Below, piece after piece: positions 4,020-63,999 of a stretch of 64,000 nt of DNA. A program made the translations under genes and the position numbers. Source of the stretch: an uncultured delta proteobacterium (lineage in GTDB: Bacteria > Myxococcota_A > Polyangia > Haliangiales > Haliangiaceae); the NCBI GenBank assembly GCA_963848295.1, contig CAWKDB010000010.1, positions 4,800,001 to 4,864,000 of the forward strand, read 5' to 3'. How positions within the stretch are numbered: position 1 is the first letter of the stretch; the number at the start of each line of letters is the position of its first letter. Under the pieces are notes generated by a model. It searched no databases. It saw only the letters and a list, made by a program, of their open reading frames with translations, and was not told the DNA's origin.

Positions 4020-5452
4020 GAGGCGCATTGATCCACGGCGTTCTGCTCGCCGTCATGTTGGTCTACGGCTACCGCACGTGGACGCGCGATACCTCGACGA
4101 AGCCGACGATCGGCACCGTCGTGTTGTGGGACCGTCCCGAGAGCGACATCCTGTCGATCGAGTACAAGACCGACAAGAGGGAAGTGAAGATCGAGCACAA
4201 GGGCACCGGTGCCGATGCGTACTGGTGGGGCACCGAGACCACGACGACGACCGAGAAGAAGAAGCCGTCCGATCCGCTGGCGGGCTCGGATGCCGCCGCC
4301 GAGACCGAGGTCAAGAAGGTGAGCGAGTTCCCGCTCGGGGACGCCGCGACCGAGCTGATCACGCGTTACACGGCGGCGCGCGCCCTGCGCGACCTCGGCG
4401 CGTCGAACGAGAAAGAGCTCAAGGAAGACAAGCTCGCCGATTCGAAGTCGAGCCTGACCGTGACGTTCAAGGATGGCGCGCGGACGTTTACCGTCGGCGG
4501 TCCGGTCTATGGTTCGTCCGACAAGTACGCGCTCGATACGAAGTCGAACAAGATCTACATCCTCGCGAAGGAGCTGCTCACCGGGCTCGAAGGTGGCGAG
4601 AGCACGCTGCATCTCGTCGATGCGCGCGGCTTCCCCGTCGATAAGATCGACGAGGTCACGATCACGGCCGGCGATCATTCGCGCGTCGCGCGGCGCGTGA
4701 CGAAGGCGGGCGAGGACGGCAAGCCGGTCAAGACCTGGGGCGACGCCGACACGAAGAAGGCGAACCAGACCATCGCGAACTACATCGAGGCGTCGAACAA
4801 CCTCAAGCCGACCGCGTACGAGTCGGACGTCAAGATGAGCGAGCTCACGCCGATCGTCGCGTTCAGCTATCGCGACGACAAAGGCGGCAAGCTCGGGACG
4901 ATGACGCTGTACCGCCACGAGAAGCCGGGCGTGTTGCCGGAGGGCGCCGAGCTCGATCCGGCGAACCCGCCGAAGGGCGAGCTCGAGTATTTCGTCGTGA
5001 CCGAGAAGTCGCGGGTACCGGGTCTCGTCCGGAAAGACGCGGCGCAGCGCACCGAACAAGATCTCGATGCGGTGTTCACCGCGAAGGCCGACGAGGAGAC
5101 CGGTGCGGGCTCTGGATCTGGCGCGGGCTCTGGCTCGGGCGTCAAGTCACTGGAGCCCAGGGGCAACCCGTTCACCGGGCCGGGTGCGAAGAACGCGCTG
5201 CCGCCGGCTCCACGCACGCCGATCCCGCCGGTCAAGCCGGCAGGGAGCGGCAGCGCGGCTCCCGGTGCGGGCAGCGGCGCTAAGCCGGCGAAGGCTCCGG
5301 CGCCAGGCGCGACACCGGCTGCGGCCCCGGTGAAGATGCAGACGGCTCCGAAGGCGCCGGCTGCGGCCCCGGCGAAGATGCCGGCCGCGGCCCCGGCGAA
5401 GATGCCGGCCGCGGCCCCACCGAAGGCGGCGGGCGCCGGCAGCGCGCACTGA
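4016..5452 (+). CDS. DUF4340-like periplasmic protein with Pro/Ala-rich tail
   Basis: N-terminal TM; usual fourth gene of gldAFG-like loci; ATGA overlap. Confidence 0.7.
   Translation: MRGALIHGVLLAVMLVYGYRTWTRDTSTKPTIGTVVLWDRPESDILSIEYKTDKREVKIEHKGTGADAYWWGTETTTTTEKKKPSDPLAGSDAAAETEVKKVSEFPLGDAATELITRYTAARALRDLGASNEKELKEDKLADSKSSLTVTFKDGARTFTVGGPVYGSSDKYALDTKSNKIYILAKELLTGLEGGESTLHLVDARGFPVDKIDEVTITAGDHSRVARRVTKAGEDGKPVKTWGDADTKKANQTIANYIEASNNLKPTAYESDVKMSELTPIVAFSYRDDKGGKLGTMTLYRHEKPGVLPEGAELDPANPPKGELEYFVVTEKSRVPGLVRKDAAQRTEQDLDAVFTAKADEETGAGSGSGAGSGSGVKSLEPRGNPFTGPGAKNALPPAPRTPIPPVKPAGSGSAAPGAGSGAKPAKAPAPGATPAAAPVKMQTAPKAPAAAPAKMPAAAPAKMPAAAPPKAAGAGSAH
5364..5418 (+). repeat. 24-bp coding tandem repeat (AAPAKMPA)
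   Basis: gcggccccggcgaagatgccggcc twice plus a partial copy. Confidence 0.7.
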
Positions 5453-5570: not shown

Positions 5571-6770
5571 ATGACTGCACCTTATCGCAACCTGCTCGTT
5601 GTCGTTGGCGCGTTCGGCTTGATCGGTGCAGGTGCCGCTTTGCGCGGCGGCGGCTCGAGCGCGTACGCCACGCCGGGGCTTCCGACTGATGGCTCGATCG
5701 CGGACGTCGCCGAGCGCGCGTTCGAGAGCGTCGTCGACGTCTCGATCACGATGCCCCAGACGTTCGAGACCAGCTTCGATCCGTTCATGGGCGGTCAGGA
5801 CGAGGCGCCGATGCACGAACGCGCCGAAGGCTCGGGCGTGATCATCACCGCGTCGGGGCGGATCCTCACGAACGCCCACGTCGTCAACAACGCGCAGACC
5901 ATCACGGTCACGCTCAACGACGGCACGAAGCTCGACGCCAAGGTCATCGGCAAAGATAGCCACGCCGATCTCGCGGTCCTCCAGCTCCAGGGCAATGTTC
6001 CGGTGCTCAAGCCGCTGCCGTTCGGCGACTCGTCGACGATGCGGCTCGGCGACATCGTGCTCGCGGTCGGCAATGGCCTCGGGGTCGGCAAATCGGTGTC
6101 GATGGGCATCATCTCGGCCAAGGGCCGGAACAACGTGCACATCGAGGACTACGAGAACTTCCTGCAGACCGATGCCGCGATCAACCAGGGCAACTCGGGT
6201 GGCGCGCTGGTCAACCTCAAGGGCGAGCTGATCGGCGTCAACACCGCGATCGCGTCGAAGAGCGGTGGCGCGAGCGGCATCGGCTTCGCGATCCCCTCGA
6301 ACATGGCGCGGCCGATCATGGAGGCGCTGATCAAGGACGGCAAGGTGACGCGCGGCTATCTCGGCGTCAACGTCATCACCGTGACGCCGGAGCTCGCGCG
6401 CGAAGCGAAGCTCGGCACGACCGTGGGTGTGGCGGTCGCCGCCGTGCAGCCGCGGGGTCCGGGCCAGCTCGCCGGTCTCGAACAGGGCGACGTCATCACG
6501 TCGATCGCGGGCATCGAGACCAAGGAGGGCAGCGTGCTGCGCGACACCGTCGCGAAGCAGAAGCCGGGGACCACGGTCGACGTCGCGCTGATCCATCAGA
6601 ATGGCGCCAAACAGACGATCAAAGTGCGGCTCGGCATCCTGCCGGACGAGACCTCGGCGGAGCAGCTGCAAAGGCAGCAGCAAGAGCAAATGCAGCAGCA
6701 GATGCAGCAGCACATGCAGCACCGGGTGTTGCCGAACGGTGTCCAGCAGTGGCAGTGGCAATCACCGTAG
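5571..6770 (+). CDS. HtrA/DegP-family serine protease with one PDZ domain
   Basis: ILTNAHVV, DLAVL, QTDAAINQGNSGGAL catalytic motifs; RGYLGV PDZ; ggagg upstream. Confidence 0.93.
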   Translation: MTAPYRNLLVVVGAFGLIGAGAALRGGGSSAYATPGLPTDGSIADVAERAFESVVDVSITMPQTFETSFDPFMGGQDEAPMHERAEGSGVIITASGRILTNAHVVNNAQTITVTLNDGTKLDAKVIGKDSHADLAVLQLQGNVPVLKPLPFGDSSTMRLGDIVLAVGNGLGVGKSVSMGIISAKGRNNVHIEDYENFLQTDAAINQGNSGGALVNLKGELIGVNTAIASKSGGASGIGFAIPSNMARPIMEALIKDGKVTRGYLGVNVITVTPELAREAKLGTTVGVAVAAVQPRGPGQLAGLEQGDVITSIAGIETKEGSVLRDTVAKQKPGTTVDVALIHQNGAKQTIKVRLGILPDETSAEQLQRQQQEQMQQQMQQHMQHRVLPNGVQQWQWQSP

Positions 6771-14557: not shown

Positions 14558-15258
14558 TCGCCGTTCGAGATCGCCGCGAGCAAGTGATCGCGCGGATCTC
14601 CGAGTGCTACGCGGCCGACGTGCTCGATGTCGACGAGCTCGAACGCCGAATCGATGCCGCTCATAACGCGAGCACGCTCGCCGACCTCGAGACGCTCGTC
14701 GCCGATCTCGCTGCGCCGACCTCGTCCACCGCGCTCGTGCCGGTCTCATCCAGCGCGCTCGCAGTCGACGATCCGAGCCGACCCGCGACCAAGAAGCTCA
14801 GCGTCATCATGAGCTCGGTCGAGCGCCGGGGTCGGTGGACCGTGCCGAAGGCGACGACGCTGCGCGTGTTCTGGGCCAGCGCCGAGCTCGATTTTCGCGA
14901 TGCCTCGATCGGCCCGGGCGTCACGACGATCGACATCAGCGTGACGATGGGCAACCTCGAGATCATCGTGCCGCCGCAGCTCGCGGTCGACGTCGATGTG
15001 TCTTCGTTCATGGGCTCGGTCGAGGAGAAGCATCGCGTCCCACCCGATCCCGATCCGGCGCGCCCGATCCTGCGGATCACCGGTGCGGTGCGGCTCGGCA
15101 ACCTGGAGATCGTCACCCGTCTGGCGGGCGAGACCGGGCGGGATGCGCACCGGCGCGAACGTCACGAGCGCCGCCAGCTGCGCAAAGCTCGTCGCAGAGA
15201 GCGCCGTGGGCTCCGAGCGGGGACTCCTTCGCTCCCGCCTGGACGTAGTGAGATGTAG
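14542..15258 (+). CDS. DUF1707 (SHOCT-like) protein with LiaF-like C-terminus
   Basis: DRREQV...LDVDELERR....A.TLADL..LVADL; RRGRWTVP, ELDFRDA. Confidence 0.82.
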   Translation: MADSLIAVRDRREQVIARISECYAADVLDVDELERRIDAAHNASTLADLETLVADLAAPTSSTALVPVSSSALAVDDPSRPATKKLSVIMSSVERRGRWTVPKATTLRVFWASAELDFRDASIGPGVTTIDISVTMGNLEIIVPPQLAVDVDVSSFMGSVEEKHRVPPDPDPARPILRITGAVRLGNLEIVTRLAGETGRDAHRRERHERRQLRKARRRERRGLRAGTPSLPPGRSEM

Positions 15259-53213: not shown

Positions 53214-53930
53214 TCAGCGATGTAGCAGCGTTGCGCCGACGATCCGGTGGTCTGCGCGCTGCGCAAACGCGACGGCTCCCGCCGATCGCCACGCCGGATC
53301 GAGCGCGATCTCGGCCGCGTGGGTCTGGCCCGCAGCCGCGACTTTGACGAGCGAGCGCACGACACGATCCGACGCGAGGGTCTCGCCGGCGTTTTCTCCG
53401 CGCGGTACCCACGTCCGCGTACCGTCCTCGTAGATCGCCGCCCACACGTCGGCGTCGGCCGGTGCGGTCGCTTCGATCGTCACGTGGCTGGCCTGCCAGC
53501 TCGCCTTCGCGCTGACCGCGCGCTGCGGTGGAGCATCGGCGATCGCGCGCGTGACGGCGGTCGCATTCGAGCCGAGCACGCCCGACGCGCCGGCCACGAC
53601 GAGCTCGGGCGTGTAGGCGCGACCATCACCGAGTGCGCCGGCGTAGTCCTCCTGGCGCGCACTCCACGCCGCCGACGAGAACGGATCGGCCCAGCCCAAG
53701 CCGTTCCAGTAGTCGACGTGGAACGACAGCGGCGCGATCCGCCGGCCGGCGGCCTCACTGGCGGCGGCGAGCTTCGACAACAGGCGGTCGGCGGGCGGGC
53801 ACGAGCTACAGCCCTGCGACGTGAACAGCTCGATCACGATCGGGGCCTCGTCGGCGCGGGCAGCCGGCGGCTCGCCCGACGCGACCGAGCAGCCCAAGGG
53901 CAGGATCACCGCGGCGATCAGTGAGCGCAT
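53214..53930 (-). CDS. DUF1223 thioredoxin-like protein
   Basis: ELFTSQGCSSCPPAD, FHVDYWN..GW.DPF, YTP, RGENAG. Confidence 0.92.
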   Translation of the reverse strand: MRSLIAAVILPLGCSVASGEPPAARADEAPIVIELFTSQGCSSCPPADRLLSKLAAASEAAGRRIAPLSFHVDYWNGLGWADPFSSAAWSARQEDYAGALGDGRAYTPELVVAGASGVLGSNATAVTRAIADAPPQRAVSAKASWQASHVTIEATAPADADVWAAIYEDGTRTWVPRGENAGETLASDRVVRSLVKVAAAGQTHAAEIALDPAWRSAGAVAFAQRADHRIVGATLLHR

Positions 53931-54031
53931 GGTGGTCGTACGAACCAGCGGGCCGCGAGGTTACCGCGATTCATCCGCAGCGAGGGCCGCAGCAGCTGTC
54001 GCCGTTGCGGCAACCCATGTACCCGGTCCAA

Positions 54032-54247
54032 CCCGTTGCCGTGACCGTTTGCCGTTTGCCGTCGCCGCTGTTCGCCGTCGCCGTGGCCGTTTGCCGTCGC
54101 CGTGGCCGTGGCCGTTTGCCGTCGCCGTTGCCGGCGCCGTTGCCGTTTGCCGTCGCCGTTGCCGTTTGCCGTTGCCGTTTGCCGTCGCCGTTGCCGTTTG
54201 CCGTGGCCGTGGCCGTTTGCCGTGGCCGCTGTTCGCCGTTTGCCGAC
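54032..54247. repeat. Degenerate GCCGT(N/TT) 6-7-mer tandem array
   Basis: ~33 units: gccgtt, gccgttt, gccgtc, gccgtg. Confidence 0.92.
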
Positions 54248-54342
54248 TTTCGGATCGGGAGCAGGAACCGGACCTCGGATTCGGCGCCGAGGCCGTCGCC
54301 GGTTGGCTGCCGGCGTGGCGCCGGCGGCCTCGGCCGAGGTTC

Positions 54343-54666
54343 TTAGTGCGTGAGCCGCCACAGGATGGCGCGCACGTGGTCGAGCGGCTCGTCGACCGCG
54401 GCGAAGTCCTCGGCGGAGATGATGCCGCGCGCCTGTGCGATCAGCAGGGCGGTCGTGAGCTCGCTCGCGCTGCCGGCGGCGCGGCGATAAAAGTCGGGGC
54501 GATCGAGACCGACGCGCATGCGGCCTTCGCTGAGGTTGAGCGCGATGCTCTCGCCGGCGCGGACGATCTCGTCGGCGAGTGACTTGCGCGTGCGGCGGAC
54601 CTTGGCCTCGACAGAAGCGAGCTGCTGCAGGACGGCGAGGGCGAAGTCGAGGGCGTAGAACGACAT
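54343..54666 (-). CDS. Four-helix-bundle protein (23S rRNA IVP/TIGR02436, Avd-like), copy 1
   Basis: LADEI.RA.ESIALNLSEG..R..A.GSA.E motif; 107 aa; SD ggagg. Confidence 0.85.
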   Translation of the reverse strand: MSFYALDFALAVLQQLASVEAKVRRTRKSLADEIVRAGESIALNLSEGRMRVGLDRPDFYRRAAGSASELTTALLIAQARGIISAEDFAAVDEPLDHVRAILWRLTH

Positions 54667-54671
54667 GAAGA

Positions 54672-54896
54672 TCCTCCGAAGTGAGTGGCCGATGGGTGGG
54701 AACGTCTCTCTCTCGCCCGTCGCGCCGCAGTCGCGCGGGTCCCGTGACGAGCGCGGGCGCTGACCACCGCACTCGCCGGCCGATCAACTCCGCGGCGATC
54801 GCTCTCACACGCCGGCGCACTCGGCGCTCGGCGCGGGACAAGCGCGAAGCGGCGCAGGGCGAGAGAGACGTTCCATCCATCGGCGCGAGCGAAGGA
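54672..54896 (-). ncRNA. Putative structured 5' leader RNA (rod-like hairpin), copy 1
   Basis: Long self-complementarity; homologous to 55209-55435 with compensatory changes. Confidence 0.7.
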
Positions 54897-54913
54897 GCGT
54901 CGAGTGTTCCAAG

Positions 54914-55207
54914 GCCGTCGCCGTCGCCGTAGCCGTAGCCGAAGCCGTCGCCGGAGCCGGAGCCGAAGCCGTCGCCGAAGCCGAAGCCGTCGCCGAAGCC
55001 GAAGCCGTCGCCGAAGCCGTCGCCGTCGCCGAAGCCGAAGCCGAAGCCGAAGCCGAAGCCGAAGCCGAAGCCGAAGCCGAAGCCGTAGCCGTAGCCGAAG
55101 CCGTAGCCGGAGCCGAAGCCGAAGCCGAAGCCGAAGCCGAAGCCGAAGCCGTCGCCGTCGCCGAAGCCGAAGCCGAAGCCGAAGCCGAAGCCGTCGCCGA
55201 TGCCGCC
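54914..55207. repeat. GCCGNN hexamer tandem array (49 units, mostly gccgaa/gccgtc/gccgta)
   Basis: Strict 6-bp period over 294 bp. Confidence 0.97.
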
Positions 55208-55208
55208 A

Positions 55209-55435
55209 CCTTTCGCACTCGCGGCTTCCGATCGCCGTGGCCGTCGCCCTGCGCCGCTTCGCGCCAGCGCCGTGCCGAGCGCCGGGACCACCGACGCGTG
55301 CGAAGGACCGCCGCAGAGTTGGATCGATCGACGCGTGCGGAGATCTGTGCCCGCGCTCGTCACGGCGCCGGCGCGAGTGCGGCGCGACGGGCGAGACGGC
55401 CCCGGCGAATCGGGCGTCCGCTCATCCACGAAAGG
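55209..55435 (+). ncRNA. Putative structured 5' leader RNA (rod-like hairpin), copy 2
   Basis: Long self-complementarity; homologous to the reverse complement of 54672-54896. Confidence 0.7.
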
Positions 55436-55442
55436 CCACGCC

Positions 55443-55763
55443 ATGCTCGACGTCCTCGCTCAATCGCTCACCGTCCTCGAACAGCTCGCCCCGGTCGAGC
55501 CGAAGCTGCGGGCTCGCCGCAAGTCGCTCGCCGACGAGATCGGCCGCGCCGCCGAGAGCGTCGCGCTCAACATCGCCGAGGCGAGCGCACGCGCCGGCCT
55601 CGACCGCCCCGACATGTTCCGCCGCGCGTTCGGCAGCGCGCGCGAGCTGTCGGCCGCGCTCATGATCGCGAAGGCGCGCGGCTACATCACGCCCGACGAC
55701 TTCGCCGCGATCGATGCGCCGCTCGATCGCGTGCGCGCGATGCTGTTCCGGCTCACACGGTGA
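55443..55763 (+). CDS. Four-helix-bundle protein (IVP/TIGR02436, Avd-like), copy 2
   Basis: LADEIGRAAESVALNIAE..GSA.E; 106 aa; about 65/106 identical to copy 1 by manual alignment. Confidence 0.85.
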   Translation: MLDVLAQSLTVLEQLAPVEPKLRARRKSLADEIGRAAESVALNIAEASARAGLDRPDMFRRAFGSARELSAALMIAKARGYITPDDFAAIDAPLDRVRAMLFRLTR

Positions 55764-55794
55764 GCGCGCGCCGGGCGCTGATTCCGGCAGCCTT

Positions 55795-55974
55795 GCCGGA
55801 GCCGCAGCCGGTTCCGTACCCGGTTCCGCAGCCGCAGCCGGTTCCGTACCCGGTTCCGCAGCCGCAGCCGTAGCCGGTTCCGCAGCCGTAGCCGCAGCCG
55901 CCGCCGTACCCGGTTCCGCAGCCGCCGCCGCAGCCGGTTCCGCAGCCGCAGCCGTGGCCGTCGCCGATGCCGAC
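55795..55974. repeat. NCCGNN hexamer tandem array (30 units) with 30-bp higher-order repeat
   Basis: gccgca/gccggt/tccgta/cccggt/tccgca units; 55801-55830 is identical to 55831-55860. Confidence 0.95.
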
Positions 55975-56010
55975 AAGCCGCAACCGGTTCCGCTGGCGAG
56001 ATCCGGACGA

Positions 56011-56817
56011 CTACGAACCGCGCAGGGCGCGGACGATTTCTTCGCGCACCACGTGCGCCAGATCGTGTGGTTTTCCGCTCGCCGAGACGGTCGCGACCGG
56101 CGAATGGGGCGCCGGCGCGCACGCGACGACCGGCTGCGAAACCCCGGTGAGCTGCGGGTAGAGCTCGACCGCGCGGTCGGCGGCGCGCCCGATGCCGGCC
56201 TTCGCGCGCGCGGCGATCAGCGGCGCCATCGCCGATTCGGGCAGCGGGACCGGGCCACCGAGTGGGGCCGCGGCCAGTGCGATCTTCGCGAGGTGCTCGA
56301 CCAGCTCGAGCCGGAGCAGCGCGGTCTCGGCGTCCTTGCCCCACGCGATCACGCCGTGGTTGCCGAGCAGCACGACGTCGACAAGCTCGCACCACGGGGC
56401 GAGGGCGGCGCGCGCGGCGTCGCCGGGCGGCGTGAAGGGCAGCTTCGGGATCCTCGGTCCGAGCGACACGACGGCTTCCGCGATAAACGGCCGCTCGATC
56501 GGGTGCTGCGAGCTCGAAGCGATCGCGGTGGCCGCAGGTGGGTGCGCGTGGACGACCGCGCCGACGTCGGGCCGGCGCTCGTAGACGACGAGGTGCAAGC
56601 CGATCTCGCCGAATACCTTGCCGGCGCCGATGACCTTGCCCTTGGCGTCGAGCTCGATGATGTCCTTGTCCTCGACCAGGCGCTTCGAGGTCGCGGTCGG
56701 GGTCGCGATGAACCGTGCGCCGTCGCGCGCGCTGACGTTGCCGTCGTGGTTCGCGACCCAACCAGCGGCGTGGAGCTGGCGCGCGATCTTCGCGACCTCG
56801 CGGCGCAGCGGGGTCAC
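56011..56817 (-). CDS. Class II aldolase with C-terminal BMC encapsulation-peptide-like helix
   Basis: DGNVSAR, TPT..SK, E..LH...[18 protein letters not shown]; tail [14 protein letters not shown]. Confidence 0.9.
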
Positions 56818-57789: not shown

Positions 57790-60700
57790 CTAGCGAATGC
57801 CGACGCCGAGCCTGGCGCGCAGCGCGAGCCAGCCCGGTAGAGCGACCGCGTGTATCAAGTGCTCCGCGGTGTCGCCGCGCGCCTTCGCCGCTGCCACGAT
57901 CGTGACCGCATCGCCGCCGACGAGCAGGGCGGCGCGATCGGCGGTGCGCTCGCACGCGGCGGCGTAACGGGCGGTGTCGAGGCTCATCGGCGGGACCGCT
58001 AGCAGCTGCTGCTCGAGCCGAGTCCGCAGCTTGACCGGCAGCGCGGCCTTGACGACCTCGTCGTGCGCGCGCTGGATGTCCTCGTCGGCGATCGACGCCG
58101 CGAGCGCATCGCGCAGCAGCGGCGGGCCGAACAGCCGCGCGACCGAGGCGACCAGCCGCGCCGATTCGGTGGCGGGCAAGCCGGCGAACGCGAGGTGCTC
58201 GGGCCGCGTGAGCTCGACGGCGCGCGCGAGCAGGGCGCGGATCGTGTCGTGCGGCAGTGGCGAGGTCTCGGCGGCGAGCCGAGGACCGATGACGATCACC
58301 GGCGTCGCGGCGGCGACGACCGTGACGTCCGCGCCTTCGTCGACTTGATACAGCATGACCGCGCCGGTGCCGAGCACGGTGGTCAACCGCGGGAACATCG
58401 CGTGCGCGGCGGCGTGAGTCGTCGCCGGAATCAGGCGCGCGCCGGAGCAGCCCATGCGCGCGAACGCCTCTTCGAGATCGGGCCACAGCAGCGCGGCGGC
58501 TTCGGCCAACGTCTGCGCGATCGGCGCGAGCACCGGGTCGGCGGTCGCGATCAAGAGCTGATCGGTCGCGTCGACCGCCGAGGGGTACGATTCGTCGTCC
58601 CGAATCGCGTACGGCTTGTTGACCTGGAGGAACGCGCTCTGATGGACGTCGGCGGTGTGACCGACGCCGATCGCGAGCTCGAGCGTCGCGCGCGCGGCAT
58701 CGAGCTTGTTCTGGCGGCGCAGCTCGTCGGCCCACGCGACGAGATCGGCGAGCGCCCCGGTCTGTGCGGTGATCGCACCGAGGTGCGTCGCGATCGCTTC
58801 TTTGCGCGCCGGGTCGTCGATCGTGGCTTGCTTGCCGAGATCGACGAGCGCACGCCGCGCCTGGGTCGCGCCCTCGGAATCGGGTGCGATCGCGATCGCG
58901 TGCTCGAACGCGGGTAGCGCTTGCCGGGTGTCGCCGCGTTGTGCGCGCGCTTGGCCGAGCCGGGTCGACAGCAACGCGCGATGCGCGGCGGACGCGGCGG
59001 AGAACCGATCGTCCTTCGCGGTGACGAGCTTGGTCAGCATCGACGCGGCGGCGTCGACATCGCCTTGGGCGAGCGCGAGCTCCGACGCGAGATCGACGGC
59101 ATCGACATCGTATGGATCGTTGTCGACGGCGCGATCGGCGGCGGCACGAGCGCGCGTCTTGTCGCCGGCGGCGAGGTAATCGTTCGCGGCGCGCAGGTGA
59201 CGGGCCGCGCGATCGGCCGGCGTCGCGCCGAACGCGGCCATCAGCTCGGCGGTCCGCGCGCTACCGGCGAGATCGCCGGCGAGGTCTTGGCGCTCGAGCA
59301 GCTTCTCGAGCAGCGGGACGTGCTTGGCCTCGAGCGGTTGCGCCGACGCGACCGCCGCGCCGTAACAGGTCAACGCGCGCTCCTCGTCGTGCAGCATCAG
59401 CAGCGACATGTCGCCGAGGGCCTCGAACAGCTTCATCCGCTCGGCCGGATCTTCGGTCGCGGTCGCCTGCCGCGTCAGCAAGTCGGCCGCCTTGCGGTGA
59501 TCGCCTTGCTCCATCGCGATCTCGGCGAGCGCCTGTAACGCGGGCGCGTAGTTCGGCTTGAGCTCGAGGGCGCGCGTGTACAACGGCGCCGCCTTCTCGG
59601 GCCGGAGCGAGCGAATCTCGGCGAGCGCCGCGTGATAAAGGCCCTGCGCGACCTCGGTCGGATACTTCACCGAGTCTTCGTGCGTCGCGAGCGGCGACAG
59701 ATGCAACGCCGCTTCGCGCCAGCGCCGCGCCTTGTAGCGGTTCTCGCCGAGCGCGAGCTTGATCAAGAGATGCCCGCGATGCATGCGATCGGCGGCGACC
59801 AGCGTCTGATACGCGTCCTCGTCGCGACCGAGCTTCTCGTGCGCGGTCGCGAGCCGGCGGTGCAGGTCCGCGACGAGCGCGGTCGGCGCGGCGGCCAGGG
59901 TCGTGCCATCGAGGACCTCGCGCAGGAACGCCTCGAGATCGGCCCACCGCTCGGCGTCGGCATAGAAGTCGGCGAGCGCGACGATCGCCGGCAAGTGGTC
60001 CGGCACGCTGCCGAGTGCTTCGAGCAACCGGCGCTCGGCCGCCGATTCGATGCCGGCGGCGCGCGACAGCGCGGCGAGCTGAGTGAGCACGCGCGCCCTC
60101 TCCGGCGGGGTGAGCGTCTCGGCTTCGAGCCGCTTCTCGAGAATGCGGGTCGCAGCATCGGGATCGCCGCCTTGCTCGGACAGCCCGGCGAGCGCCCAGG
60201 TCGCGTCGGCGTGATACGGCCGCAGCGTCAGCACGCGCTCGAACGCGGCATGCGCGCCGGCCATATCGTTGACGCGCGAGCGCAGGACCTCACCGGCCGC
60301 CATCAACGCGGCGATCTTGACGTCCTCGTCCTTCGCGCTCTCGGCTTCGCGCAGCTTCGCGTCGGCGAACGCGCGCGGATCCTCGTCGGGCGACGCGAGC
60401 TGAGCGAGCACCGCGAGCGCGGTCGGGTGCTCCGGCACCAGCGCGAGCGCGTGATCGATCGAGGCACGCGCGGCGTCGCGGTCGGACAGCTTGTCGACCT
60501 GGAGCTGCGCGAGCCGGATGTAGAGCCCGGCGAGCTCGCCCTTGCCGCCGCCGGCCTCGGCGTGCGCGGACAGCGTGTCGATTCGATTCTCGAGGATCGC
60601 CGAGGCTTCGCGGTCGCGTCCCGCCTTCGAGAGCGCGGCGACGAGGGCGTCGGCGAGTGCGGCGTCGTCCGGCGCGATCGTGCGTGCGTGGCGCAGCGTC

Positions 60701-63700
60701 GCCGCAGCTTCGTCTGGCATGTCGAGCCAATCGATCAGCACGCCCGCGCGCCGGGCGAGCAGTTGCGCGCGGTCGGCAGGCTCGCGCGCGAGTGCCGCGC
60801 GTCGGCGCAACACGTCGGCGAGGTCGCTCCATCGCGCGTGCGCTTGGTACAGGCCGTCGAGCGCCGCCCACGCTTCGATATCGTCGGGCCACGTCGCGAC
60901 GATCGCGTTGTACGACTCGATCGCGCGATCGGGCAGCTCGAGCTCGACCTCGTGGATCCGCGCGATCGAATGCAGCGCCTCGCGCGCTTCCGGCGAGCCC
61001 TCGGCGGTCTCGACGATCCGGCCGAGGGTCTCGATGACCTTGCTCCACCGGCCGACCGCGCCGTAGCGATCGGCGAGCCGTTGCATGACCATGATGTCGC
61101 TCGGCGCGAGCACCCGCAGGCGTTCGAACGCATCGATCGCGTCGTGCTCGCGATGCAGTCGGTCGACATAGATCGCGGCGAGATCGCGCAGCAGCTGAGG
61201 ACGCTCCGCTTCGGGCGCCGCGGTGCCGAGCCGAGGGTCGGTGCGCTCCTCGAGCGAGGCCGCGAGCTCGACCCAGCGGCCTTCGGCGCGATACAACTCC
61301 TCGAGCCGCGCGCGCGCGGTCGCATCGTTCGGCAGCATCCCGAGCACGCGGCGCAGCTGAGCCTCGGCGTCGCGCCAGCGCTTCTGCTCGGTGCGGATGT
61401 TCGCGACCTCCATGAGCAGATCCGCCGCGGCTTGCGCGGTCTCGGCTTGCTCGGCCATCCCTTCGTAGAGGTCGGCGAGGCGGTCGAACGCCTTGTTCTC
61501 GGACGCGATGCGTTGCAGGCGGGCGCGGACCTCGGCATCGCCGTCCGGGGTACGCCGCGCCTGGTCGAACGCGCGAGCGAGCGCATCGAACGCGCGCACG
61601 ATGTCCTTGGCGCCGGTCTCCCAGACCTCGGCTGCGCGGAACAGCCAGCGCAGCCGCGTCGCCGGATCGGGCGCGGGCAAGCCTTCGTAGGCGACCGCGA
61701 GCTCGTCCCACGGCGCATCGAACTCGCGGTTCGGCAGGCTCGGCAGCGGCGGGCGGCGCACCGGCAGCTGCGGCTTGCGCGCGGTCATGCCGGGTAAGCC
61801 GAGGCGCGGCATCGGCGGCGGCGAGCTCGGGCGATTCGCGCGCGCCGACCGCGTGATCTGCGGCGTGCGAGGCGATGGCGGTGGCGGCATCTTGCCGGCT
61901 TGCCCCGTTCCGGGCGTGCGCGGCGGCGGCACGGCCATGCGCGCGAGGTCGCTCGCCGAGAGCGTCATCGTCGAGTTCTCGGCGGCGAACGCCGGGTCGG
62001 GCCGAAGGGGCTTCGGCGGGGCCGTGAGCTCGACGTCGTCGAGATCGATCGGCTGAGTCGAGTCCCCGACCGCGAGAGTCGCTGGCGTGAGGTCGATGTC
62101 GGCGAGCGGCTCGGTCGACGCTCGGCGCGGGATGTGCGGGCGACCCGGCACCGAGCGATTCGATGCCGCCACCGCCTCCGCGATCGCGGCTTCGGATTGG
62201 ATCGTCGCCGGCGCGGGCTCGGGGCGCGGAGCGCGGTCGGTCTCGCGGTACTTGCCGATCGCGCGGGCGAGTCGCCACAAGTGCGACGTCGTCTCGGTGT
62301 CGTCGGGGGCGAGCAGCAGCGCGATCAGGTGCGTGCGGAACGCGCGGGGGGCGTCCTTGAGCTGCTCCTCGATGATGCCGGCCTTGCGGCGGAGGATCTC
62401 GACGCGTTTGTCGGTCGTGGCGGCCCGTTCGACGAGCGCGCTATCGACCGCGACGAGGTCATTCCACGCCCGCGCCTTCGCGGACAGCGCGACGAGCGCT
62501 TCGCGCGTGCCTTCGCGATCCGGCGACCACGAGAACGCCGCGAGGATGTCGGCGACCGCACCTTTCGGATCGCCGACGCGTTCGTCGAGGATCCGCGACC
62601 GGCGTAGATAGAGCTCGACGCGCTCGCCCGGGCTCGTCGCGCCGAGCGCGAGCTCGAATGCATCGAGCAGCGCCTTCCAGATCGGCCGTTGATCGAGCTC
62701 GCCCGCGAGCCGCTCGAGCTCGGCGAGCAGCGTGCCGTCGCGCGGGACGACCGCGAGCGCTTCGCCGTAGACCATGACCGCGCGCGGCTTATCGCCGAGC
62801 CGGCGTTCGGACAGCTGCGCGAGCTCTCGCGACAACGCGACGTAGCGATCGGCCTCGGCCGGCGCGCCGCCTTCGCCGAGCGCGACCAACCGCTTGCGCT
62901 CGTCGGCGAGCACTTCGGAGAGCTCGCGCCAAAGGCCGTACGACTCGGCCGCGCGCCGGACATCGGCGAGCGATTGCTCGTCGGGCGCTTCGTCGTGAGC
63001 GCGGCGCCACCAGCGGAACGCGGAGCGCGGATCGCCGAGCTTGTCGGCGATCGCGATCGCGATGCGTTGCACGAGTTGGCGGCGCTGCTCGGCGTGCTCC
63101 GGCGCATCCGAGACGTCGCGCGACGGCACGCGGGTGAGCATCCGCTCGACCATCACGACGTAGTCCTTCCACCGCCCGGTCTTCGCGAGCAAGTCGGCCG
63201 AGGCGGCGAGCGCCTCGTCTTGATCGGGATCGAGCTCGAGCACGCGGCGGAACGCCTGCAGCGCGCGCGTCGGGTTCGCGAGGCGGTCGCGACAGATGAG
63301 GCCGATCTCCAGCCCGCGGGCGACCTTGCGAATCGGCTCGGGCGACAAGTACATCTCGCGCTCGGCCACTCGCACCGCCGCGTCGTAGTCGCCGCGCGCT
63401 TCGTGCAGGCGGCGCAGCGCGGTGTGGGCGTCGAGGTGGTTCGGATCGAGCTCGCGCAGCAGGTGCTCGAACACCTTGATCGCTTCATTCGGCGCGCCGA
63501 GGCGCTCCTCGAGTAGCTCGCCGCGCTCCATCGCGATCTCGGCGGCGCGCGTGCGATCATCGGCTTGCCCGGAAGCGGCGAGCACCGCGATCTGCCGGCC
63601 GAGCACGTCGGCGAGCTCGCGCCACTTGCTCTGCGCTCGATAGAGCCGACCGAGCGCCTCGAGCGCGCCGCGACTTTTCGGGGTCAGCTCGAGCAGTCGA

Positions 63701-63999
63701 TGCCACGCCTTCGCAGCGCGCGGCGCATCGTTGAGCTTGCTATCGAGCACCGCGGCGTAGCGCTCGAGATCGACGGCGCGGACCGCGGCTTCGGGGGTCG
63801 CCGGCGCCGGCAGCGGCCGGCCACCGTCGATGCGCTCGAGCACCGACACGAGCTCGGCCCAGCGTTCGCTGCGCTCGTACAGCACGCCGAGCGCGGCGAG
63901 CGCATCGGGGTCCGACGGCGACGCGCGCAGCGTGTGCTCCCAGCGCTCGAGCGCGGTGACGTCATCGCCGCGTTCGGCCGCGAGCTTCGCGAGCCGCTT
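57790..63999 (-). CDS. Giant TPR-repeat protein (>2060 aa, 5' end beyond the window)
   Basis: Many AL.AL..LY...W..L TPR-like repeats; frame open to the window edge; C-terminal TADRAALL..GD. Confidence 0.85.
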   Translation of the reverse strand, partial: KRLAKLAAERGDDVTALERWEHTLRASPSDPDALAALGVLYERSERWAELVSVLERIDGGRPLPAPATPEAAVRAVDLERYAAVLDSKLNDAPRAAKAWHRLLELTPKSRGALEALGRLYRAQSKWRELADVLGRQIAVLAASGQADDRTRAAEIAMERGELLEERLGAPNEAIKVFEHLLRELDPNHLDAHTALRRLHEARGDYDAAVRVAEREMYLSPEPIRKVARGLEIGLICRDRLANPTRALQAFRRVLELDPDQDEALAASADLLAKTGRWKDYVVMVERMLTRVPSRDVSDAPEHAEQRRQLVQRIAIAIADKLGDPRSAFRWWRRAHDEAPDEQSLADVRRAAESYGLWRELSEVLADERKRLVALGEGGAPAEADRYVALSRELAQLSERRLGDKPRAVMVYGEALAVVPRDGTLLAELERLAGELDQRPIWKALLDAFELALGATSPGERVELYLRRSRILDERVGDPKGAVADILAAFSWSPDREGTREALVALSAKARAWNDLVAVDSALVERAATTDKRVEILRRKAGIIEEQLKDAPRAFRTHLIALLLAPDDTETTSHLWRLARAIGKYRETDRAPRPEPAPATIQSEAAIAEAVAASNRSVPGRPHIPRRASTEPLADIDLTPATLAVGDSTQPIDLDDVELTAPPKPLRPDPAFAAENSTMTLSASDLARMAVPPPRTPGTGQAGKMPPPPSPRTPQITRSARANRPSSPPPMPRLGLPGMTARKPQLPVRRPPLPSLPNREFDAPWDELAVAYEGLPAPDPATRLRWLFRAAEVWETGAKDIVRAFDALARAFDQARRTPDGDAEVRARLQRIASENKAFDRLADLYEGMAEQAETAQAAADLLMEVANIRTEQKRWRDAEAQLRRVLGMLPNDATARARLEELYRAEGRWVELAASLEERTDPRLGTAAPEAERPQLLRDLAAIYVDRLHREHDAIDAFERLRVLAPSDIMVMQRLADRYGAVGRWSKVIETLGRIVETAEGSPEAREALHSIARIHEVELELPDRAIESYNAIVATWPDDIEAWAALDGLYQAHARWSDLADVLRRRAALAREPADRAQLLARRAGVLIDWLDMPDEAAATLRHARTIAPDDAALADALVAALSKAGRDREASAILENRIDTLSAHAEAGGGKGELAGLYIRLAQLQVDKLSDRDAARASIDHALALVPEHPTALAVLAQLASPDEDPRAFADAKLREAESAKDEDVKIAALMAAGEVLRSRVNDMAGAHAAFERVLTLRPYHADATWALAGLSEQGGDPDAATRILEKRLEAETLTPPERARVLTQLAALSRAAGIESAAERRLLEALGSVPDHLPAIVALADFYADAERWADLEAFLREVLDGTTLAAAPTALVADLHRRLATAHEKLGRDEDAYQTLVAADRMHRGHLLIKLALGENRYKARRWREAALHLSPLATHEDSVKYPTEVAQGLYHAALAEIRSLRPEKAAPLYTRALELKPNYAPALQALAEIAMEQGDHRKAADLLTRQATATEDPAERMKLFEALGDMSLLMLHDEERALTCYGAAVASAQPLEAKHVPLLEKLLERQDLAGDLAGSARTAELMAAFGATPADRAARHLRAANDYLAAGDKTRARAAADRAVDNDPYDVDAVDLASELALAQGDVDAAASMLTKLVTAKDDRFSAASAAHRALLSTRLGQARAQRGDTRQALPAFEHAIAIAPDSEGATQARRALVDLGKQATIDDPARKEAIATHLGAITAQTGALADLVAWADELRRQNKLDAARATLELAIGVGHTADVHQSAFLQVNKPYAIRDDESYPSAVDATDQLLIATADPVLAPIAQTLAEAAALLWPDLEEAFARMGCSGARLIPATTHAAAHAMFPRLTTVLGTGAVMLYQVDEGADVTVVAAATPVIVIGPRLAAETSPLPHDTIRALLARAVELTRPEHLAFAGLPATESARLVASVARLFGPPLLRDALAASIADEDIQRAHDEVVKAALPVKLRTRLEQQLLAVPPMSLDTARYAAACERTADRAALLVGGDAVTIVAAAKARGDTAEHLIHAVALPGWLALRARLGVGIR

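Follow-up and report, generated by a model that had tools for sequence, protein, structure and literature searches.

Paired four-helix-bundle protein genes, hairpin leaders and hexamer arrays form a dispersed composite element in a Haliangiaceae genome

PF05635 (S23p, 'four helix bundle protein') is very common in bacteria; to our knowledge its sole understood member is Avd of the diversity-generating retroelements (DGRs), and we know of no explanation, in thirty years, for the link of the family to the intervening sequences of ribosomal RNA. Here we describe a composite element of ~2 kb at positions 54033–55992 of a 64,000-nt stretch of DNA (hereafter the window) from an uncultured delta proteobacterium of the family Haliangiaceae (assembly GCA_963848295.1, contig CAWKDB010000010.1, positions 4,800,001–4,864,000). 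Two divergent genes for four-helix-bundle (FHB) proteins of PF05635/TIGR02436, each with an upstream hairpin of ~180 nt, are set among three hexamer arrays of the type (N)CCGNN. The element is one of ten copies of a dispersed repeat in this genome; the composite is multi-copy and family-wide, and its protein genes and hairpins are functional. It is likely of a kind not yet described, and the literature on PF05635/TIGR02436 proteins and on myxobacterial or intergenic hexanucleotide microsatellites, supplements aside, contained no description of such an element.

The closest described system is the intervening sequence (IVS) of 23S rRNA that bears an S23p open reading frame (ORF), as in Coxiella burnetii and Leptospira. 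According to PMC4990558, such IVSs are regarded as selfish, with a mobility enzyme that is not known, sit in helix 45 or 25 and have terminal inverted repeats enclosing the ORF, which in Coxiella is decaying and has copy-number-variable heptamer repeats just upstream. The element shares with them the protein family (S23p being PF05635), a very stable stem-loop that accompanies the gene and short tandem repeats near the ORF. Unlike an IVS, it lies between protein-coding genes and not inside a 23S rRNA helix, its hairpin closes 5' of the start codon with no stem around the ORF, its genes are paired divergently and embedded in hexamer satellite that runs to hundreds of bases and, in contrast to the decaying Coxiella ORF, they possess good Shine-Dalgarno sites and evolve under purifying selection. 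PF05635 also resembles Avd, as stated in PMC10053308. Like a DGR, the element encodes a small, related four-helix-bundle protein next to a structured RNA region and concentrates its array variation at defined positions of a repeated sequence; unlike a DGR, it has no DGR-type reverse transcriptase (RT), template repeat/variable repeat (TR/VR) pair or target gene, its variation is not adenine-specific, and its repeats are tandem hexamers where a DGR has a 100–150-nt template and copy. Type III toxin-antitoxin systems (ToxIN) combine tandem repeats, a strong hairpin and a small gene, the ToxI repeats being 36 nt long and ToxN/AbiQ an endoribonuclease. The order of repeats, strong hairpin and small protein gene is the same in the element, but its units are 6 nt long, its proteins belong to PF05635 and neither of them matched any family in PADLOC.

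A composite element in ten copies

An earlier note on this DNA had described the layout as array, FHB gene on the minus strand, hairpin, array, hairpin, FHB gene on the plus strand and array, which was confirmed by Tandem Repeats Finder (TRF), profile searches and folding. The left outer array (54033–54228, plus strand; TRF period 6, 31.5 copies, 10% indels) consists of (G)CCGNN units with 7-mers such as GCCGTTT being common. The left cassette, a leader-plus-gene unit on the minus strand, contains a short G+C hairpin as its 3' tail just past the FHB_L stop (54286–54334; inverted repeat I8, 16-nt arms, 88% complementary), the FHB_L gene (54343–54666, 107 aa, PF05635/TIGR02436) with a GGAGGA Shine-Dalgarno site read from the sequence at 54672–54677, and leader L (54667–54925), whose long hairpin has its outer arms at 54699–54712 and 54861–54874 (inverted repeats I7 and I10). 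The central array (54926–55205, plus strand), given earlier as 49 hexamers, amounts to 49 units by regular expression (54914–55207) and to 46.7 copies of GCCGAA by TRF; its 48 in-phase units are GCCGAA (28), GCCGTC (11), GCCGTA (5), GCCGGA (3) and GCCGAT (1). The right cassette, on the plus strand, consists of leader R with its long hairpin (55200–55442), the FHB_R gene (55443–55763, 106 aa, PF05635/TIGR02436 by ORF and profile matches) with a GAAAGG Shine-Dalgarno site read from the sequence 7 nt 5' of the ATG, and a 3' tail with a small CCGGCA..TGCCGG hairpin (55764–55794) that is kept in other copies. The right outer array (55795–55992, plus strand, by TRF) has NCCGNN units (GCCGCA, TCCGCA, GCCGGT, CCCGGT and others). 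No hexamer array of TRF score ≥80 beyond these three is present in the 64-kb window.

The assembly comprises 7.78 Mb (68% G+C, 11 contigs, 85% complete), with the window on contig C10. Using blastn with the leaders as queries, both leader types were found at 10 loci, 91–98% identical to those of the window, and the units of these 10 composites averaged 93–94% identity; three diverged cassettes were found besides, a pair at C11:697–699 kb, a single one at C10:1.11 Mb and a fragment at C2:904 kb. Among the 31 PF05635 matches in the genome there were 10 divergent pairs ~1 kb apart. Homology among the copies ends at the outer ends of the outer arrays, corresponding to ~54030 and ~55995 in the window. 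The left and central arrays were present in all 10 copies, while the right array was long (29–59 in-phase units) in 5 and short in 4 of the 9 copies that have a right side. In co-oriented copies every array reads (N)CCGNN on the sense strand of FHB_R (10/10). Arrays were found at 13/13 cassette loci versus 0/9 other PF05635 loci, which also have no leader, and 27 of the 64 genome arrays of at least 8 units fall within 1.2 kb of the 13 cassette loci. The proposal that hairpin, FHB gene and repeats travel as one unit is upheld by these 10 composites with their single polarity and by the distribution of the arrays; as to the prospect, raised with it, that paralogs elsewhere lack leader and arrays, members of the same subfamily have both, and the lack applies only to distant PF05635 paralogs. 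The copies document a dispersed element in a bacterium of which long microsatellite arrays are an integral part.

The copies swap segments by gene conversion. The distance matrices of the L and R units were incongruent (Mantel r 0.17, a value reached in 1335 of 5000 permutations), the four-gamete test failed for 59% of informative site pairs, and a PHI-type statistic lay below all 2000 permutations.

Of 121 family genomes sampled, 52 contained leader-plus-gene DNA, at ≤80% identity as against 94–96% among the copies of this genome. Arrays were present at 15 of the 29 best loci of relatives, many of these loci being cut by contig ends, and the longest array in a relative reached up to 86 units. 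The median array load was 53 matching windows in genomes with cassettes versus 9 in those without, 13 apparent non-carriers being array-rich. In four apparent non-carriers, of genera g6 and g7, PF05635 genes ~40% identical were flanked by arrays at 26/30 loci; these genes form divergent pairs, each with its own hairpin of ~150 nt in which the GTCACGG element is kept. The count of carriers based on DNA queries had therefore missed carriers. In a tree, the members of the g6 pairs formed two well-supported sister clades apart from the L and R genes of this genus, suggesting that the head-to-head pair arose, or was homogenised, independently. The association of gene, hairpin and array thus recurs across genera at ~40% protein identity. 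Two unpublished genomes (G077 and G082) enter the relatives' counts as single rows, and no conclusion rests on them.

Constraint on the proteins and their hairpin leaders

The assignment of both proteins to PF05635/TIGR02436 made in the earlier note was correct, since they scored above the cut-offs of both families, with 47.2 and 50.4 bits for PF05635 (cut-off 33.8) and 48.5 and 47.5 bits for TIGR02436 (cut-off 24). A sequence match to 2GSC chain A was also obtained (E 7.8e-4); S23p of X. campestris has a four-helix-bundle fold and forms a toroidal homopentamer. FHB_L relatives were absent from the viral contigs and plasmids searched. The two leader-plus-gene units share 80% of their alignment columns, so that the core of the element is an imperfect 1.4-kb palindrome around the central array. 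The amino acid identity of FHB_L and FHB_R is 65% (over 99 aa); the earlier note, which held gene and leader to have been duplicated together, had given ~60%. Both genes are under purifying selection, with pooled dN/dS values of 0.18 (FHB_L) and 0.14 (FHB_R) at a pS of 0.16–0.18, and FHB_L is intact in 10/10 and FHB_R in 9/10 copies. The exception, G000:C10:727325–728262, keeps both hairpins and FHB_L, has its FHB_R cut after ~43 codons and has no right array.

Each gene is preceded by ~250 nt that fold into one long hairpin, with energies of -148 (leader L) and -151 kcal/mol (leader R), z values of -4.9 and -5.6, and none of 200 shuffled sequences equally stable. In an alignment of 26 leaders, of which 7 belong to this genome and the other 19 to 18 further genomes, two motifs were invariant or nearly so, GCCGAGCGC in the 5' arm (54824–54832 in leader L on the minus strand, 55274–55282 in leader R on the plus strand) and GCGCTCGTCACGG in the 3' arm (54742–54754 and 55353–55365, respectively). 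The 3' motif pairs through GCGCTCG, followed by a TCA bulge and then CGG, and two pairs just outside the motif helix covary, with both sides changed in 14/26 and 10/26 leaders. The outer and apical stems vary in sequence, and all 26 leaders still fold (-96 to -152 kcal/mol). Leader divergence averaged 5.8% and 7.1% versus 13.4% and 15.6% at third codon positions, that is about half, indicating that the leaders are also constrained. The hairpin is always 5' of the gene and ends 21–43 nt before the start codon in 18/19 cassettes of relatives, which fits a role as a 5' leader. PF05635 is thereby placed in a clean, repeated and evolutionarily tested context, consisting of a selected protein, a bulged hairpin 5' of its start codon and fast-evolving satellites.

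Leader hairpins were also seen at places without an FHB gene: two in tandem, 480 nt apart, on a contig of a public metagenome-assembled genome (L132:1454–2124), and single ones in three relatives (L057, L059 and L060). A scan of the genome and of viral contigs for GCCGAGCGC-N60-90-GCGCTCGTCAC was discarded as too unspecific, as nhmmer identified only 4 of 145 as true leaders among the matches listed, and it is uninformative on taxonomic range.

Insertion sites and a candidate enzyme acting in trans

The element lies between two host genes, DUF1223 (53214–53930), which retains its conserved 5' region CATGG...GGTTAC at 53928–53964, and a class II aldolase (3' part, 56011–56700), whose stop codon (56011–56013) is ~20 nt from the right array. 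Both are on the minus strand and hence co-oriented, as the earlier note stated. Of 29 loci in congeneric species, 19 have aldolase and DUF1223 26–172 nt apart, three contain other coding-like DNA and seven have no aldolase within reach; an FHB gene between the two was found in 0/29. The copy at C11:317–318 kb gave a similar picture: an FHB gene or leader past the orthologous left neighbour was found in 0/29 relatives, and in 11 of the 23 relatives holding both neighbours these are 6–89 nt apart, meaning that the 1.8-kb element fills a former spacer of tens of bases between convergent genes. The unit was thus inserted between aldolase and DUF1223, as had been suspected, and two sites are empty in relatives, showing insertion into spacers of mere tens of bases between convergent genes. 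All copies are located between protein-coding ORFs. At least 6 of 10 copies have a left array starting 0–50 nt past a stop codon, and in at least 7 of 9 the gap between the right array and the stop codon of the converging gene is -1 to 29 nt, the neighbours being mostly convergent. Flank-to-flank alignments at 9 sites gave no target-site duplication above shuffled sequences (67/300 for the window, 9–198/200 for the others). A duplicated aldolase 3' end that appeared by eye to be present at the left junction (53961–54000) was not significant.

An RT or transposase, as ORF or domain, was not found within 54033–55992, in line with the earlier note, and any mobilising enzyme would consequently act in trans. 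With respect to the RT and HUH enzymes that the note had looked to elsewhere in the genome, both classes are present, as three RTs and nine Y1_Tnp genes, none of them near a cassette. The three significant RVT_1 matches all belong to the group II intron type, and a tie to a DGR/Avd-type RT accordingly found no support, although a partner RT could have been missed in an assembly that is 85% complete. One group II intron-type RT (G000:C2:795818–797472; L093, L004), a 655-aa ORF scoring 204 bits against TIGR04416 (below the cut-off), lies ~0.7 kb away from an ordinary PF05635 gene without leader or arrays, the two being divergently oriented; a near-twin of this PF05635 gene is located at C10:3467581. 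Among 45 ORFs neighbouring the cassettes of relatives, two code for Y1_Tnp and the rest are unrelated housekeeping genes. These two IS200-like Y1_Tnp genes stand beside cassette arrays at 2 of the 29 relatives' loci: at 5587–9055 of L307 (G115:C29) the gene adjoins the cassette and has CCG-hexamer arrays on both sides, and at 5307–7403 of L306 (G044:C5) it is 180 nt from the cassette's array. A cassette with an adjacent Y1_Tnp gene may be an autonomous form of the element, which we regard as a lead and not as a finding.

Dispersed, non-autonomous hairpins without terminal inverted repeats or target duplications are known from intergenic spacers as REPIN/RAYT systems and as IS200/IS605-derived, palindrome-associated elements. 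A Y1 HUH enzyme that recognises bulged hairpins mobilises them in trans, and those of the REPIN type are ~100 nt long and contain no gene. The likeness to the element extends to the Y1_Tnp genes, which occur in this genome and, in two relatives, beside cassettes. Unlike REPIN/RAYT, the hairpin of the element is ~180 nt long and linked with a conserved protein gene as well as with satellites, and leader-like hairpins do not flank any of the Y1 genes in this genome. Nor does it resemble an insertion sequence (IS) or a miniature inverted-repeat transposable element (MITE), having no transposase domain and no target-site duplication and ending in arrays.

Taken together, we favour the reading, with a probability of roughly 0.6, that the element is a selfish, IVS-like composite which is moved in trans and whose protein has the hairpin of its own leader as its predicted target. 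Each FHB protein would bind the hairpin in its own 5' leader, and the pair could constitute an autoregulated ribonucleoprotein or else a processing site of the RNase III type as in the stems of 23S IVSs. An enzyme encoded elsewhere would move the element, the best candidate being a hairpin-recognising Y1/HUH transposase, because there is neither a target duplication nor an internal transposase. The arrays might be the preferred landing DNA of this enzyme or a by-product that is continually regenerated. Contact between protein and hairpin, and any role for the arrays, are both inferred. Several observations weigh against this reading. The purifying selection seen in 19 genes could equally mean a host function. 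G-U pairs are as common on the antisense as on the sense fold (121 vs 113), which gives an RNA hairpin no preference over a hairpin or cruciform of DNA. None of the nine Y1_Tnp genes of the genome has a leader match or an array of at least 5 units within 1.5 kb, and the two cassette-adjacent Y1 proteins (G115 and G044) are only 37% identical to each other. Because of gene conversion, the similarity of the copies need not mean recent transposition. Finally, the relatives compared are distant (DUF1223 ≤68% aa identity), and for this reason the comparison does not fix the timing of the insertion or the state before it.

That purifying selection acts on both genes, that the architecture is conserved across genera and that the arrays adjoin the stop codons of their neighbours, mostly between convergent genes, would also be expected of a domesticated host module, in which the FHB pairs served as RNA- or DNA-binding regulators of the host and the hairpin/array blocks acted between converging genes as terminators or insulators whose usefulness led to their amplification. 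We consider this unlikely, given that two loci are empty in all relatives examined, that cassette DNA occurs in only 52 of the 121 family genomes with copy numbers and positions varying by species, and that one copy is already without half of FHB_R; the positions in convergent spacers are equally explained if only non-disruptive insertions survived.

Sequence and turnover of the hexamer arrays

Across the arrays 919 in-phase units were counted, with CCG being fixed by construction of the count; position 1 was G in 89% of them, N5 and N6 took all 16 combinations, and G was rare at N6 (4%), so that a unit has three fixed and three free positions. Adenine-specific variation was not observed in the 919 units, as N5 and N6 each take all four bases. 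The cosine between unit spectra was 0.32 within an element, 0.32 between elements and 0.34 for the same array position across copies, and this equality implies that array turnover is fast relative to the cassette divergence of 6–7%. CCG, the period of 6 and the single polarity persist despite the turnover. The unit spectra gave no sign that the arrays flanking a cassette are the halves of one older array.

If the FHB protein–hairpin particle itself made or maintained the CCGNNN satellites, by guided repeat synthesis or by targeted slippage, the bacterium would harbour an element able to build and renew satellite DNA of its own, and PF05635 would gain a first function outside DGRs; we hold this to be quite unlikely. 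Distinctly improbable, too, is a retroelement-like repeat maker, in which the Avd-like FHB protein and the hairpin RNA would recruit an RT in trans that copies a short template repeatedly, as in telomerase or a DGR, and writes CCGNNN arrays in which three positions are fixed and three are error-prone. The constancy of CCG over the 919 units, as counted, beside N5/N6 in all 16 combinations, the quick renewal of the arrays apparent from the equal cosines within and between elements, the survival of the gene–array association to 40% protein identity and the resemblance of PF05635 to Avd stated in PMC10053308 would suit such a mechanism. The assembly, at 85% completeness, contains only the three RTs of group II intron type, none beside a cassette; runs of identical units and higher-order periods of 12–36 nt are products of slippage and not of unit-by-unit mutagenesis, and there is no obvious template in the leader.

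Read as codons, the fixed CCG could also give an unchanging Gly (GGN) or Arg (CGN), the variable bases falling at synonymous sites or at adjacent codon positions, such that the arrays would code for peptides of the module made of dipeptide repeats, X-Gly on the minus strand or Arg-X on the plus strand; a 76-aa minus-strand ORF (55753–55983) indeed reads the right outer array as Gly-X, and some solo arrays lie within long ORFs with coding-like GC3. A coding role is nevertheless very improbable, as phase breaks are common (10% indels with 7-mers in the left array, up to 9 in-phase runs per array), the residues encoded would occur in odd proportions (Cys 122 and Ala 1 of 919), the copies do not share a conserved composition and start signals are not apparent. 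That the arrays are assembly artefacts is hardly credible: Logan contigs from four soil/root metagenome runs cover pieces of the element, break at the arrays and bridge none, but the same architecture occurs at 10 loci on megabase-size contigs and cassette-flanking arrays are present in the assemblies of other species (15/29 and 26/30 loci).

Away from the cassettes the genome has 37 arrays, some intergenic and some inside ORFs, and a genome search found no cassette 3' tails beside such solo arrays. Long solo arrays at C10:224645–224908, C11:383259–383480, C2:877763–877930 and C10:3810853–3811086 (G000) overlap long ORFs whose GC3 is coding-like, in most cases close to the 3' end of the ORF. 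At the left flank of copy c2_1180 (G000:C2:1181.6–1181.9 kb) the array continues a Pro/Lys/Ala-rich C-terminal tail of the upstream ORF, in which (CCG AAG)n encodes PK repeats, and coding repeat and satellite merge there.

As regards other signals in and around the element, an Rfam scan of 53800–56200 returned only two rows at chance level (E 1.7 and 4.5), and a scan for sigma-70 promoters gave 0 sites. A sigma-54-like TGGAAC-N5-ACGC noticed by eye in leader L was dropped since it is not conserved in other L copies. One terminator-like site is located inside the end of the aldolase gene. Elsewhere in the window there are two tandem repeats unrelated to the hexamer arrays (a 24-mer in 3.7 copies at 5349–5436 and a 35-mer in 1.9 copies at 14658–14724) and, ~1.8 kb past the aldolase, a repeat-rich ORF of 2031 aa (57790–63885, minus strand) that is TPR-like by eye.

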